A program made the position numbers. A DNA stretch of 64,000 bases, from assembly GCF_000026545.1 (NCBI RefSeq), contig NC_011601.1. The stretch is one strand, 5' to 3'. Shown piece after piece: positions 53,801 through 59,800 of this stretch (positions are counted from its first letter, which is position 1; each line of letters starts with the position of its first letter). Source of the stretch: Escherichia coli O127:H6 str. E2348/69 (GTDB taxonomy: Bacteria > Pseudomonadota > Gammaproteobacteria > Enterobacterales > Enterobacteriaceae).

Positions 53801-56800
53801 ACGTTGTCGTGACATACGTTCCCGATGACTTGCCTGATCTCGTTCAGATGATTGGACGAGCCGGGCGCGATGGGGAACCTGCCCGCGCTTTTCTGCTGTG
53901 GTCATCGCTGGCGCTGGATGTTGCTCCTGATGAGCTTGCTTACTTCTACCGCCCTGAAAACTGTAACTGGCAGTACATCGCTAAATACCTCTGAGTCGAA
54001 AGGCTCTCCCTGATTCTCTGGAGTTAATCATATGCCTGTTACCGAACATGCGCAGCGTCGTGCTGCGCGTGCGGATGCGCTCATCACCGCACAACTAGCC
54101 TTTGCCCTGAATGGGTACAACTGGGATGAACTGGCCGAACCTCATCGCAAGACCCTTAATCGTGAGGCCATCATTCGCGAGGTATCTACACCGCTGGAGC
54201 GATATTGCCTGCTGAATGATTGCGAGCCGTGGGAGTGTCTGGCCGCTGTACTGAACCGCATGAAAAGGCCGGATGGCTCGCGTCGCTGGAAAGCCGTCCG
54301 GTTGTCCGACCGGGTTTTCAATGGCCGGGTGCATCCAGTGCGCAAGACTCCTGATGAAGTTTACGCCGCCATTGCCCGCCGCTTGTTCCTGCCGAAGCCT
54401 GTGCATCAAGAAGTGATACAGCACATCCGTGCGCTTGGCTTGTTACCAGTTGGAGATAACCACCAATGACGAAATCTGAATTTGAAAATGAAACATGGCG
54501 AATGAAGGGCTTGCTTCTTGGGGCGCTGATTCGCCGCCTTGAGGAAGATAAGGCTGGCGAGTCGCGCATGGTCGCAGCGGAGTTATCCAGTGCGGTCAAC
54601 TTCCTTAAGGCCAACGCCGTAGAAGCGCCGGACACATCATTCAACAACGTGTTCCCGGAGGATGACGAACAATGACCCCTGAACAATTCAGACAATGGTT
54701 CGCCACGCTGCCACCGAACTATCAGAGCGCCGCACGCACCATGTACGACAACGCCCGCAAGTCGGGCATACATACCGCGTCAAGCCTTGCGCTGATTCAC
54801 ACGTTGGTTACTGACCAGATCAAATTTGATTCGGAGTTTAATTTATGACTTTGAGTATTACCGATATCCAGCGCATTAACGCGCTGGCTCATAAGCACCT
54901 AAAGAACAATGAAGAGATTGCAGCGGAGACAGGTCATACCCTGACCGATATTGACGCTGTAATCCGTGGCGTCTATGTCGATGACTTGGCCGAACATTGG
55001 AAAGACGATGCTGATATTACTCTGGCGGAGTACAACGCCATCCGCAGCCGCTATAAGCCCGGCAAGTTGCACCGCGATACAGAGTTTATGATTGCCCGCG
55101 ATATGCTGATTCGCCCTGAGACTGTGCTGGCTATCGCCCATTCCCGCTTTAGCAACGTCCACACGCACCCAGTGCCGAAAGCCGTCAAAGCAAAGCCGGA
55201 GAAAGCGAAAGTAGTGCGCAAGTTAGTGCTTACTGATTTAGATGAAATCCACAAGTTAGAGCGCTTCGGTTGGCCTGCTGCGGAGATCGCCGGGAAGCTG
55301 GGCGTCCCTGTTGAGGTCGTCGCGCATGTGCAACGCTGCCTGAGAAATCGTTGGTCGTACCCGGATACTCTGGAGTCTGTTAACTCCAAATTCAGCGAGG
55401 CTGAATGATGGCAGAGAACGAACCGCTGCACCCCGCCGTTAACCCTGATCTCTACGTGAACCTTGACGAACAACGCGAAGGATACGCTCCGATTGAATCA
55501 CAGGGTTGGGATGTGCTGACGCAGAACCTGACCGGGAAAGGTCGAACTGACCCCAGCCAAACACTTAACCAGAATCCGAAACAACGCCCGCACGGCTCCG
55601 TTGGTGAGCGTCGTTGGCTTCGTAAACGTGGATTACTTTAACGAGGAATTACCATGAGCAAAACTATCGTATTGCTGCCGCCCCGCAAGAATACAGACTG
55701 GGCTGCACAATTAAAGCTGATTTCTGAATCGCTTGAGGTGAGTCAGGCAGACCTCGCCCACGCCTATCAGGTTGATCGTCGGGATATGGGTAAAGCGTAT
55801 CACGGTGTGCGCAAACTGCCGGAGCGTTGTGTGCCTGTTCATATGCTGTTGTTAGCGCAGGTACACGACTTTAGAGCATTATCAGGAGAATAATTTATGT
55901 CTGACCAGAATGTTAATCCGTACCTTTCCGGTGCTGATGCTGCATCGCAGCAATCGCCATACATGGCTGCACCTGTTGGCGCTGACAATGGCGCATCCCG
56001 CTTTAGCTCTGTGCCTGCTGATGCTGATTTCCTCCGTACCCAGCCCGTTAACGGTAATGATGGCGGCCAATGGAATAATGGCAGTATCGCGAATCAGCAG
56101 GATCAGAACGCTGACAGCGCCGGGGCGCAGGTGGGCGATACTATCTCCCTGATGGATGGAACAGCTATTGAGTACACCGCCGAGCTGCAAGGATTGATGG
56201 GGCAGTTTCACCAGTCTGTCGAAAGCCAGCTAGGGCAGGGGACAGTTGACGCTATGTTGCAGTACGCTGGCACGCTCGACGCCGGGACGCAATCGACCCT
56301 TGAACGGATGGTTATGTCTGGCGACCCTGCGCAGATGCAGCGGGCGGTTCAGTATCTGCAAGAGCGTATGGCTGGCGGTTCCATTACCGGTTACGTCCCG
56401 AACGGCCAGACTGCCGCGCAACCTGTCGGAATGTCACATGCTGAGTTTATAGCAGCGTATGACCAGCTTTCGCAGTGGGCGCAGCAATCAGGGTATGGCC
56501 CCGGCCATCGCCAGTACGACGAACAATACCGTGCTCTGGTTGCGCAGCGCTCCGCTGGCAAACGTGCTGGTCGCTAACGCCCAACGGTGGAATGCGCCCT
56601 GCAAGACTGAGTGCGCACCAACCCGGTACTACCACACCAATCTAAGCGCATGAGTCCCCGCAAGCCGCATTCTGCGCGGCATCTGAAAGCCTGTTTTTAA
56701 TTAACCGAGGTTCGTAATGAGTACCTGTAATTTCCATGCCGTGGTGCGTGTCGCTGACGTGCGCCCGGATTTCGCCTTGCCGCTGGGTAGATGCGACCAC

Positions 56801-59800
56801 ATTTACCCTGAGCGTGTGCAGCACGTTTTCAATCCAGACGAAGCGGTTTATATCGTTGCCCGGTCTGCCACATCCGGCACCCGCACATCTGGCGTTAGCC
56901 GTGGGCTTTCCCCTGTGCTGCCGCCGAAGATGGCCGAGCGGATGCGCGAACGTGAACGGCACGAGAAAAACCGAGTCAGACCCCGCAAGGTGATCACTGA
57001 GGCGATACGCGCTGACATTATCGATCGCTCTGCAAAAGGTCAGAAGAATCGTTACATTGCAAGCAAGGTTGGTGTGTCTGAAACCTCTGTGCGGAAGGTG
57101 TTGAACATGGCGCGTATGAGTGCGCACTAGTGCAAGGTAATACGTTCACCTTACTTCACGCGCACTAACCCCTGAGAACCGTGCCAGCTCTGGCCTCAAA
57201 ACGCCCATTTCGGGGCACCTCATTCCTCTTAATCGATACCGTTCTGAATCCTGCCTCGGCGGGAGGATTACGCACGCCCGCGCCATGACGATGGCCGGGC
57301 CTATCTCGTCAGTGAATCCGCTGGCACAACCTACGTAGGAGTTTTACATATGGCCGATAACATTTACTCGCCTGACCAGTTCCGCCCACATTATGGCGGG
57401 GTGGAATCTGACAATGATATTCACATCGAGGCTTATGACCGGGATGTCCAGACCCGTTTAGAGTCCAAATCCGTATTTCTGGCCGAGGGGCTGTCTACAT
57501 ACAGGCCGCTGAAAGCCAGCAACCAATATCGTGTTGATCGCCTGAGTGGTGATCTGGAGGTGAAGGGCAGAACCGCAGGGCAATCGCTGGAGCCTACCGC
57601 TGTTAAGTCGGATAAGCTGATTATCTCTGTGGATACGCTGAGTTATATCCGCATCCCGATTGACTATCAGGATGACTGGACAGCACCCACCTTTCGCTCA
57701 GAGCTGAGCCGCAATATCGGTACTGCTCACGCTAAATTCTACGACGAAGCGCACACCATCCAGCTAATCAAAGCGACTGACTTTGTACCGCCGCCGACGT
57801 TGCAACCAACGTTTAACCCGCTGACGGATAATGTTGTCTCGCTCGACCTGACAGCGGGGAGCGAAGAGGACGCCGCAAACGAATTGTCTCACGCCGTAAA
57901 AGCGGCTGCTAATCGCTTTCTCACTGAGAAAGATATTCCGGTGGCCGAGCTGGTACTGCTTATCGACCCGGCTTGGTTCAGCATCCTGATGGAACATAAG
58001 AAGCTGATGAACATCCGTTACAGCCGGGATAGTGGCAACGATTACGCATGGCGTCGAGTTGGCTATGTCGCTTGGGTACGAGTCATTGAGCTGAACAGTT
58101 ACCCGCAGGGAGCCATTACCGCGCATGAACTGGGCGCTGATTATAATGTGACCGCAGGGGAAGCGCTGACACGGGCGACGCTGTTCCGGCCTGCGTCTGT
58201 ACTTGTGACAGTCGAAGCGCAGAGCGTCATCAATCGCCAGTGGGATGAGGAACGCGAAATGACAATGGTGATGGACTCATATCGCCTGTTCAATGTTGGG
58301 CTGCGCCGCCCGGACTGCGTTATCAATTTCCGACAAGCTGCATAACTGGAGGGGCTGAGTCATGGTTAATGATGCTTACGCCCCTGAGCTGTTGCGATCC
58401 CTTTTCCTGTATGACCCGGTGACAGGTCGCCTGCACCATAAAGCTAGCCGATGCCGGGTTACGGCTGGCTCCTATGCTGACTCCACCCGGCGAGCTGATG
58501 GCTATCGTCAAGTTGCCCTGCGACTGGATGGCAAGCAGTACCAGCTAAAAGCCCATCGCGTAGCGTGGATTCTTGCGCATGGTGCTATTCCCCACGGTAT
58601 GCAGATCGATCACATCAACGGTACCCGTGACGATAACCGCTTATGCAATCTGCGATTGGTTACGCAGCGGGAAAACGACCAGAACCGACGCAAGGCAAGG
58701 GGGTATAGCTGGAATAAGGGCTGTAGCAAATGGGAGGCTTACATACGCGTTGGTGGTGTACTCCGTCACCTTGGCTTATTCACATCCGAAGCGGCAGCTC
58801 GTGCTGTGTACCTGAAAGCTAAAGCCAGATACCACCCCTCAACGCCTGACGATTTATTGCAGGCTGCCTAACCCTCGGAGGTTCCATTAATGGCTGATGA
58901 AAAGCCGATTAGGTCGCTGGCAGGTGATGACCCACGCCGCCAGCAGTACGCCGAACTGTTGGCGCAGGCTAGCCGCATGACTATTCCCCGGCTGCATCCG
59001 GGCGATGCTAACAGTGTGATGAGTCAGCTTGCAACGATGCTTGGCGCACCTGTCCCGATAGTCGGTGCTATGACTGAGCACGCCGCTGCATGGCGTGCCT
59101 GTCTGCTTGAGCAAGGACTTGGCGAGCTTCTGGATGGCTTGAGTAAACAGGTGCTGACCATCTTCTTTCTGCTCTGCTGGAGAGACAGCGCCTTGCGATT
59201 GGCTGGTAAGCAAAAGAAACGGCTTACAGCCGCCAGCGAGGGTTTGACCATTGAGCAATACCGGGCAATGCACCCGGCTTACAGAGAGGATAAAGAACAT
59301 GATAACCACGATTAAATTAAGGTGGCGGTACATCGAGACGCCGCCAATGACTGGCGCACTCGCTGACCTGAAACAGTGGGTAATGAATGCCGTAGAGCCT
59401 GAGCTTGAGGCTGAATTTCGTAAGCTGCTGGGGCAGATGCGTCGCAATGGTATCAGTGATGGGCGCGTAAATGCGGTGGCTGATGAGCTTTATGCTCTGG
59501 TATGCCAACGCCAGCGCGAAGAATACGAAGCCTGCAAGCGGGCTGCCTCTGACAATGGAGACTTTGAATCATGGTTACACGGACAGACCAGCTACTAAGA
59601 AAAGCTATGAGGGGCTATCTGGAACACCTTGGCAACATGCCGCTGGCGGAACGGATTACAAATGCTGCTGTATTCGAAGATGTGTATCGCTTTTTGTTGA
59701 ATGGTTCCGGGCGGCTGGAGCTGCGCCGCGCTGACGTGGCTGCCGTCCGTGTCTTCCTTTGGAACTATCAATACCGCCGCTGTGCTGTGACAGGTAAGCC

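Follow-up and report, generated by a model that had tools for sequence, protein, structure and literature searches.

What does a run of eight small genes, all annotated in RefSeq as encoding hypothetical proteins, do in the chromosome of Escherichia coli O127:H6 str. E2348/69? The run occupies positions 54032-57130 of a 64,000-nucleotide stretch of contig NC_011601.1 (RefSeq assembly GCF_000026545.1), referred to as the window, whose numbering is used throughout except where a related locus (L004 and so on) is named. It forms the centre of a 15.06-kb element that is integrated at tRNA-Leu(CAA) and bounded by 30-nucleotide (nt) direct repeats, and this element, on balance, appears to be a phage satellite of a new, capsid-encoding family. 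It would parasitise phiKMV-like podophages of the Autographiviridae, for which the nearest candidates known are Bonnellvirus-like coliphages. Two of the eight open reading frames (ORFs) were linked to phage assembly proteins: ORF7 is scaffold-like and ORF2 resembles a small terminase subunit (TerS), and part of the operon would therefore be a capsid-assembly and packaging module. The ORFs, which follow one another in succession in the ORF list and on direct reading of the sequence, are given below.

54032-54469, + strand: ORF1, 145 amino acids (aa)
54466-54675, + strand: ORF2, 69 aa
54672-54848, + strand: ORF3, 58 aa
54845-55408, + strand: ORF4, 187 aa
55405-55641, + strand: ORF5, 78 aa (RefSeq start at 55408, giving 77 aa)
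55654-55893, + strand: ORF6, 79 aa
55897-56577, + strand: ORF7, 226 aa
56717-57130, + strand: ORF8, 137 aa

A first-pass annotation, made from the sequence alone, had described eight ORFs with four ATGA start/stop overlaps, and both the sequence and the ORF list bear this out, with overlaps at 54466-54469, 54672-54675, 54845-54848 and 55405-55408. The other junctions (ORF5/6, ORF6/7 and ORF7/8) are gaps of 12, 3 and 139 nt, respectively, and strict overlap coupling is limited to ORF1-ORF5. The 58-aa ORF3, which had been absent from the ORF track owing to a length cut-off, is real and annotated in RefSeq as WP_000187175.1. A GGAG/GAGG Shine-Dalgarno box precedes the ATG by 6-10 nt in all eight ORFs, and pairwise ratios of non-synonymous to synonymous substitution rates (dN/dS) against orthologues were 0.03-0.26 over the eight ORFs, with a range of 0.17-0.36 for ORF3. 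Overlaps of 4 nt are common in bacterial operons, and, judging from the related loci, the weight is carried by their conservation and not by their presence alone: of six such loci, taken from other genera or from metagenomes, five have the same -4 overlap at all four junctions and the sixth (L004, Trabulsiella) has one junction of +1, and overlaps of 1-8 nt are retained in L010, a relative at only 40-50% identity. Because of the Shine-Dalgarno boxes, the low dN/dS and the overlaps kept in relatives, the eight genes were taken to be real and their coupling to be conserved. The tight translational coupling proposed earlier accordingly holds for ORF1-ORF5, whereas ORF8 is not considered translationally coupled, since it is separated by 139 nt and belongs to a replaceable cassette. 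Nor do the genes look like fragments of larger disrupted ones, the outcome that had been named as a refutation, as their lengths are stable in relatives that are ~40-60% identical and dN/dS lies well below 1. The 3.1-kb operon region showed no DNA similarity in phage records.

Remote homology was assessed by comparing every island family with every phage family by hhalign, for which the genes of four phiKMV-like phages (Lidtsur, Pantoea phage LIMEzero, Proteus phage 309 and phiHAO78-1) were clustered into 126 families. The ORF7 family (56 members) matched the four phage scaffolds with a probability of 94.8% (E 5e-8), residues 100-225 of ORF7 being aligned with scaffold residues 268-410, including the extreme C-terminal motif. 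Against all 126 phage families, the scaffold was the best match (E 1e-7), ahead of the second family (E 0.03) by a factor of 1e5. The C-terminal motifs SGDPxQ and QYxxxYxxLVxQRxAGKxxG, read by eye, are common to ORF7 and the phage scaffolds, and the N-terminal Q/P-rich half was not alignable in this comparison. ORF7 lies upstream of the gene for the major capsid protein (MCP), as does the scaffold gene in all four phages; the two genes are adjacent in L004 and L007, and the ORF8 cassette is placed between them in the E2348/69 window. Both hallmarks of a phiKMV-like scaffold, homology of the C-terminal half and a position upstream of the capsid gene, were found in ORF7, and one of its homologues is named 'Scaffolding protein' in a UniRef entry. 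No match was obtained by tblastn of ORF7 against phages, and its homologues occur only in islands of this kind. Taken together, the alignments make it very likely that ORF7 is a shortened scaffolding protein with the conserved C-terminal half of phiKMV-like scaffolds.

The only family match of ORF2, seen in two of the five members of its family, was to Pfam PF11123 (DNA_Packaging_2; E 3e-4, model positions 12-47 of 79), with a score of 21.3 bits that did not reach the gathering threshold of 27.5; ORF2 also matched phrog_891, terminase small subunit. BLASTP to the Lidtsur TerS gave an E-value of 3e-4, and the comparison with the four phage TerS proteins by hhalign a probability of 92.7% (E 4e-7), the next of the 126 phage families following at E 0.057. 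In the joint alignment, ORF2 retains the N-terminal core and the acidic tail and is devoid of a helix of ~26 aa (69 aa versus ~100 aa); no solved structure was matched by the ORF2/TerS profile. ORF2 is likely to be TerS-derived and of the gp18 type (T7-like), and, because its Pfam score is below the threshold and the hhalign homology remote, it is regarded as a derived, shortened relative and not as a standard gp18 member. ORF2 and ORF7 do not appear to be recent fragments, since their shortened lengths are stable in relatives that are 40-50% identical and both are under purifying selection. The initial impression that none of the products carried a recognisable motif beyond helix-turn-helix (HTH) segments did not survive the profile comparison of these two proteins. 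Likenesses of ORF5 and of a 99-aa protein encoded further downstream to parts of TerS (hhalign E 0.002-0.008) were too weak for use and were set aside.

The HTH segments noticed in the 187-aa and 137-aa products were recovered in both. The AlphaFold2 (AF2) model of ORF4, with a predicted local distance difference test (pLDDT) score of 83, comprises three 3-helix HTH units and a basic linker at residues 99-128, and the ORF4 profile matched the 'CAP repeat' of PDB entry 8vd6 (E 1e-5). In an exhaustive HMMER search of 1.84 billion representatives, the ORF4 family amounted to only seven representatives at E<=1e-30; weaker matches were multi-HTH proteins, several of them fused to HNH or GIY-YIG homing nucleases, and the fold matches in BFVD were generic multi-HTH proteins (DNA-binding tails of homing endonucleases, transposases and sigma factors). 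On the strength of its model, ORF4 is a predicted triple-HTH DNA-binding protein and a candidate sequence-specific recognition factor. ORF8 contains a C-terminal HTH (HTH_23, E 4e-4) and gave a weak match to phrog_836, 'late transcriptional activator' (E 1.4e-3). Its homologues were found only in these islands; a longer form (208-209 aa) is present in L010 and L016, and its position is taken by an unrelated 115-aa ORF in L004, L007, L017 and L020. ORF8 is a putative regulator, its gene being a cassette that separates the scaffold gene from the capsid gene. For ORF6, a Cro/XRE-like HTH was recognised by eye, with a weak NCBIfam HTH match. It is likewise variable: alleles in L004 and L007 are 53-56% identical, L010 and L016 have none, and L015 carries an ORF that is 36% identical to ORF6 and placed after ORF1. 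ORF6 and ORF8 are HTH proteins in swappable cassettes.

No family match was obtained in profile scans for ORF1, ORF3 or ORF5. ORF1, a conserved core gene, is all-helical in its AF2 model (pLDDT 70), a fold without match in PDB or BFVD; its homologues are confined to these islands, with dN/dS of 0.03-0.14. ORF3 and ORF5 are conserved core genes, found at 39-93% identity (ORF3) and 36-97% identity (ORF5) in relatives, in the case of ORF3 including L010 and L016; ORF5 has a low-complexity middle and a basic C-terminus (dN/dS 0.17-0.19).

The limits initially set for the operon proved too narrow, as it is part of a wider unit that reaches from a helicase gene (52150) to an endonuclease VII gene (59996). 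Within this single co-directional + strand block, ORF1-8 are preceded by the RecQ-like helicase and followed by the capsid protein, an HNH protein, two uncharacterised genes and endonuclease VII.

50885-52149, no strand assigned: gene-free stretch of 1.26 kb upstream of the helicase, without a credible gene; its DNA is conserved in L005 and L006
52150-53994, + strand: RecQ-like superfamily 2 (SF2) helicase, 614 aa; Pfam DEAD and Helicase_C, N-terminal region of ~260 aa unassigned
57350-58345, + strand: MCP, 331 aa, of the Autographiviridae phiKMV-like type; phrog_267, E 3e-64
58362-58871, + strand: HNH endonuclease of the HNH_3 homing-endonuclease type; Pfam HNH_3, E 2e-18; phrog_99
58890-59315, + strand: conserved core gene, 141 aa, no family match
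59299-59598, + strand: conserved core gene, 99 aa, no family match
59571-59996, + strand: endonuclease VII-like protein, 141 aa, last + strand gene of the block; Pfam Endonuclease_7, E 4e-6; phrog_423, E 1e-15

By tblastn, the MCP was 56% identical over 98% of its length to that of Bonnellvirus coliphages (Lidtsur, J8-65, forsur and others), and it also matched relatives from phages on Kosakonia, Cronobacter, Enterobacter and Pantoea, all of them phiKMV-like Autographiviridae. It aligned with solved podophage capsid proteins in the PDB at E 9e-78 and showed dN/dS of 0.13-0.15. The closest phage HNH protein is encoded next to the capsid gene of phiHAO78-1 (hhalign E 1e-30), and the endonuclease VII-like protein was matched to phage endonuclease VII at E 6e-10 by hhalign. 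The 141-aa and 99-aa genes recur in relatives, including L010 and L016, at 29-93% identity. When all island proteins were compared with the Lidtsur genome by tblastn, the capsid protein (E 9e-118) and, weakly, endonuclease VII (E 2e-4) were matched, the other phage genes remaining unmatched; in the four phiKMV-like genomes, no counterpart exists for the helicase, ORF1, ORF3, ORF4, ORF5 or either of the 141-aa and 99-aa genes. Pfam and PHROGs scans of the proteins of the + strand block and the left flank detected no portal, tail, large terminase, polymerase or lysis proteins, and, because these genes are lacking, the island cannot make particles alone.

The helicase is a presumed replication protein, which scored 140 bits, below the cut-off, against NCBIfam recQ_fam and has relatives that are 33-95% identical. 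It also matched the PADLOC 'DpdF' sub-model PDLC02858 from end to end (E 2e-277), because that sub-model was apparently built from close relatives of the helicase. A role as DpdF in Dpd 7-deazaguanine defence was rejected, given an NCBIfam DpdF score of 124 bits against a cut-off of 550 and the lack of any other dpd gene in the island; the PADLOC label could mislead surveys of defence systems.

The ends of the element and the genes adjoining them are as follows.

47258-47342, + strand: tRNA-Leu(CAA) gene, identified with ARAGORN
47313-47342, + strand: attL, last 30 nt of the tRNA gene, direct repeat of 62374-62403
50315-50884, + strand: small serine recombinase of the resolvase/invertase type with a C-terminal HTH; Pfam Resolvase, E 8e-37, HTH_7; phrog_125, DNA invertase
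60038-60940, - strand: AbiTii-like abortive-infection protein, 300 aa, right cargo; PADLOC AbiTii, E 2e-48
61028-62239, - strand: tyrosine integrase, 403 aa; RefSeq 'site-specific integrase'
62374-62403, + strand: attR, 30-nt copy of the 3' end of tRNA-Leu

The region was present in 58 of 5,426 complete E. coli genomes, as a single copy in each and always in the chromosome. The resolvase was found in every relative whose left side was recovered (26-98% identity). The two genes at the right end encode AbiTii and the integrase, the latter being 95-98% identical among copies at tRNA-Leu and only 36% identical in the copy at tRNA-Gly (L016).

The layout of the island, at 14-15 kb, recurs in at least nine enterobacterial genera. 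A search led by the MCP identified islands in Trabulsiella, Enterobacter, Kluyvera and Kosakonia, in which the genes stand in the same order and identities vary in mosaic fashion (55-99%), and homologues of ORF1 and ORF7 were found in Escherichia, Enterobacter, Citrobacter, Cronobacter, Klebsiella, Kosakonia, Phytobacter and Trabulsiella, exclusively in such islands. The deeper relatives L010, L015 and L016 (33-60% identity) all retain the helicase, ORF2, ORF4, ORF7 and endonuclease VII, and L010 and L016 further retain ORF3, ORF5, an ORF8-like gene, the capsid gene and both uncharacterised core genes; L016, whose integrase is a different one, is complete and lies at tRNA-Gly. Island length stays at 14.1-15.1 kb despite differing cargo. 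The satellite MCPs form a separate clade that is sister to the Lidtsur/LIMEzero group, and the satellite scaffolds likewise form a clade of their own; because each stands apart from the phage proteins, the capsid-scaffold pair is considered old in the satellite lineage. E. coli K-12 was the isolation host of the closest phages, and E2348/69 itself is a standard laboratory strain. The genera that carry islands overlap with those on which the nearest phages grow (Escherichia, Kosakonia, Cronobacter, Enterobacter and Pantoea).

A working model of the satellite would start with infection by a phiKMV-like podophage, which would activate the block. The helper would supply the portal, tail, large terminase and lysis functions, and the helicase, with partners among ORF1, ORF3 and ORF5, would replicate the excised element. 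ORF7 and the satellite capsid protein may then assemble a small procapsid on the helper portal; a length of 14-15 kb is about one third of a 42-kb helper genome, the ratio that would be expected for capsids of triangulation number T=4 as compared with T=7. A comparable size relation between satellite and helper exists for P4 and P2 and for Staphylococcus aureus pathogenicity islands (SaPIs) and phage 80-alpha. ORF2, possibly guided by ORF4 as a DNA-recognition partner, would divert the helper large terminase to satellite DNA. Translational coupling could fix the stoichiometry of the small factors, ORF6 and ORF8 might set regulation or helper specificity, and ORF1, ORF3 and ORF5 may be factors for helper takeover or sensing. 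In its full form the proposal is tentative and is held with somewhat less than even confidence: the islands may be the first described satellite family of T7-like (Autographiviridae) virulent podophages in enteric bacteria, 'half-capsid-forming' elements that place their own capsid and a short scaffold on a stolen portal, use a miniature TerS with a triple-HTH partner for capturing the helper motor, and encode among their other operon proteins factors for helper sensing or takeover. A literature search found no description of this element, which is not proof that none exists, and no description of a satellite of T7-like podophages.

Several observations weigh against the satellite reading. Induction, excision, replication and transfer of the island are predicted from its genes, as is its candidate helper, and the closest phage capsid protein is just 56% identical. 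The links of ORF7 and ORF2 rest on profile-profile comparison with shallow phage profiles (four sequences), single-sequence scores being below the thresholds; BLASTP with the ORF7 sequence was non-significant (E 0.55). ORF1, ORF3 and ORF5 have no assignable function, and for ORF4, ORF6 and ORF8 the assignment stops at HTH DNA binders with putative roles. To our knowledge, a RecQ-like helicase is not usual as a satellite replicase. No excisionase/AlpA and no recognisable pac or cos site was found in the island, the LIMEzero phage promoter consensus had no match in the window, and sigma-70 promoters were lacking on the + strand within or upstream of the block. The circle junction (attP, CGCYWWAMCCC-att-AGTCACTAAATT) was not found in the viral and JGI metagenome contig collections, and IMG/VR yielded just one related contig. 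L015, finally, has no detectable capsid gene and carries a 120-aa phrog_21723 protein in its place (L015 11320-14487); in such a form, the capsid protein of the helper may itself be the target of remodelling.

Some of these observations would suit an island that does not spread in particles at all and instead poisons phage assembly, its capsid, scaffold and TerS look-alikes acting as dominant-negative decoys and its movement depending on the integrase or on chromosomal transfer. Truncated TerS and scaffold homologues could block the complex, L015 retains ORF2 and ORF7 in the absence of a capsid gene, the attP junction is missing from virome and metagenome contigs, and the cargo (AbiTii, TIR/ThsB and restriction-modification (RM) genes) is defensive. 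We nevertheless consider such a decoy island unlikely. A full-length capsid protein under purifying selection and a scaffold co-evolving with it suggest real shells, and the narrow length range of 14-15 kb has little explanation unless packaging sets a limit. Decoys would have no need of a helicase, an endonuclease VII and an HNH protein of their own, and the occurrence of near-identical copies across many genera points to efficient spread by horizontal transfer. The two modes, interference and satellite transfer, do not exclude each other.

The two other explanations appear weaker still. The first-pass suggestion of a phage early or regulatory module stands in so far as the genes are small and lie in a phage-related island; tight coupling, small products, the HTH segments of ORF4, ORF6 and ORF8 and the behaviour of ORF6 and ORF8 as swappable regulatory cassettes all agree with it. 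In the strict sense of a module of small proteins with no structural role it is quite improbable, as packaging and assembly proteins have homologues in ORF2 and ORF7, the operon being in part a capsid-assembly and packaging module, and the block continues straight into the capsid gene. Least probable of all is a decaying temperate T7-like prophage, in which remnants of early genes would appear as the small ORFs and TerS and scaffold would be partly deleted. Integrase-bearing temperate Autographiviridae exist (for example LUZ100), and ORF2 and ORF7 are indeed shorter than their phage counterparts, but no trace was found of RNA or DNA polymerase, of genes for portal, tail tubular or internal virion proteins, or of large terminase and lysis genes, and the same reduced set of genes is kept, with the same lengths, at 33-60% identity, with dN/dS of 0.03-0.26 and no pseudogenes. 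About half of the genes are without counterpart in the four phiKMV-like phage genomes, the satellite capsid and scaffold proteins fall into their own clades, and no complete prophages were found that join the helicase/ORF1-8 block to a full Autographiviridae structural module.

By analogy, the presumed satellite would be closest in its working to a combination of chromosomal islands that are phage-inducible and capsid-forming (cf-PICIs; own capsid), CpmB of SaPI1 (short scaffold) and SaPI TerS or PICI Rpp (terminase redirection). CpmB, which together with CpmA stands for capsid-size redirection in SaPI1 (Dearborn et al. 2017 eLife), is reportedly a short protein that bears the C-terminal, capsid-binding end of the helper scaffold, and is presumed to compete as an alternative internal scaffold leading to T=4 shells. 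ORF7 similarly keeps the C-terminal half and end motif of a phage scaffold, from which size redirection is inferred; it has no sequence relationship to CpmB, which acts on the capsid protein of the helper, whereas the island brings its own. The Autographiviridae structural module (portal, scaffold, capsid ... TerS, TerL; for example in Lidtsur and LIMEzero) shares with the island the order of scaffold followed by capsid gene and a capsid protein that is 50-56% identical, and further homologies are found in the scaffold C-terminus, the TerS N-terminus, endonuclease VII and the capsid-adjacent HNH protein. The island differs in that every other phage gene is missing, TerS is encoded upstream of the scaffold and not near the genome end, and the element is integrated, with an integrase and defence cargo; such a phage or prophage would be recognised by its polymerases (a single-subunit one for RNA, and one for DNA), by portal and tail tubular proteins and by a large terminase, all of which are absent. 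Classical PICIs and SaPIs are marked by int with a divergent pair of regulators, AlpA/Xis and a primase-replicase (Pri-Rep); in the island, the integrase is present, no AlpA, Xis, primase or Rep family match was found among the proteins, and the sole protein of replication type is the RecQ-like helicase. P4-like satellites would be recognised by psu, sid, delta, alpha (primase-helicase) and epsilon/ash, none of which was matched in PHROGs or Pfam. The island thus falls outside Autographiviridae phages and prophages, classical PICIs and P4-like satellites, and, for want of a portal, protease and connectors, outside the cf-PICIs as well.

Like the island, cf-PICIs (Alqurainy et al. 2023, 10.1101/2022.09.08.507074) are ~15 kb long, integrated and found in Enterobacteriaceae; they encode a capsid protein of their own, with the HK97 fold, together with an HNH nuclease and a protein resembling a small terminase, and near-identical copies exist in several genera. 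Of this trio, the capsid and HNH proteins are clear in the island, and the TerS-like ORF2 is shortened and below the Pfam cut-off. Unlike the island, cf-PICIs encode a whole head (portal, protease and head-tail connectors) and steal only siphophage-type tails. In the island, PHROGs and Pfam gave only the major head protein from that set, with no portal, protease or connector, and the only ORFs of portal length encode the helicase and the integrase; its capsid, scaffold and TerS are of the T7/phiKMV type, and it carries a RecQ-like helicase instead of AlpA with Pri-Rep. In the cases of SaPI TerS(SP), E. coli PICI Rpp and PLE, a small-terminase relative or binder of the satellite redirects the helper large terminase (10.1101/2024.04.22.590561). 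ORF2 differs from these in belonging to the gp18 (T7-like) TerS family and being internally shortened, and it may replace, partner or block the helper TerS. PLE and PICMI, Vibrio satellites of virulent phages (PMC10803314, PMC10002752), resemble the island in their compact one-direction operon of many small proteins, and, like them, the island would have to be triggered by an infecting virulent helper, prophage induction not being the cue. They have no sequence relationship to it, PLE remodels the helper coat through the external scaffold TcaP, and PICMI is without capsid genes.

Known satellites either steal the whole head (P4, SaPI, PLE) or build the whole head and steal tails (cf-PICI), and an element that contributes the capsid and scaffold only would be an intermediate design. 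If this holds true, satellites would be extended to T7-like podophages, which find wide use in phage therapy and serve as laboratory models.

The gene-free stretch upstream of the helicase contains pyrimidine-rich direct repeats of the CTGTC type (51588-51690), an 11-nt repeat, CCGCGCTCGCT, that occurs twice, and an AT-rich palindrome (51778-51805). The stretch 50885-52149 may be a control, operator or origin region. No terminators were predicted on the + strand within or upstream of the block. Three island intergenic regions had no shared motif beyond what was seen in shuffles, two intergenic regions folded no better than shuffled sequences (z -1.3 and -1.5), and Rfam gave no match besides the tRNA. 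No repeated motif was found in the Lidtsur genome, and the only DNA shared with helper-type phages, in a search covering pac sites and terminal repeats, was the capsid gene. An exact 18-nt match between the left end of the island (47384-47401) and a site near the right end of Lidtsur (41162-41179) has an E-value of ~0.01-0.04 and was dismissed as probably due to chance.

The position of the HNH gene differs between copies (58362-58871 in the window; 5684-6920 and 10561-11079 in L016; 6219-6731 in L010), and three extra HNH genes are present in L016; these positions, and that of the closest phage HNH gene beside the phiHAO78-1 capsid gene, may be a sign of homing or of a targeting of capsid regions in the helper. 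Among the Logan contigs, L017 (15069 nt) is equal to a single island; its two ends both fall in the att core and overlap by 28 nt, which could mean a circle or else a break in the assembly graph at a repeat of length k-1. Several further Logan contigs of 14-15 kb carry the island.

The cargo on the left side of the E2348/69 copy consists of the following features.

47860-49852, no strand assigned: left cargo region of low GC content (37-45%), its content differing between copies
47860-48408, + strand: 182-aa ORF, no Pfam or PADLOC match
49160-49852, - strand: 230-aa ORF, phrog_11802 (unknown function), no Pfam or PADLOC match

Both ends of the island are cargo hot spots (60038-60940, - strand, in the window; 584-1528 and 13001-13615 in L017; 5814-7193 in L008; 3369-3695 in L015). 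Other copies carry TIR and ThsB-TIR, a DNA methylase with NmeDI, or Rap1a, the cargo often being defensive, and the position of AbiTii is taken there by ThsB-TIR, a methylase or other genes. Defence cargo at both ends would fit the pattern of known satellites, and the island moves such genes (AbiTii, TIR/ThsB, RM) between genera. A type I RM locus (hsdR, hsdS) lies directly outside attR (62628-63935, - strand, and beyond), and the tRNA-Leu site is known as a hypervariable defence region in E. coli (10.1101/2025.09.15.676423).

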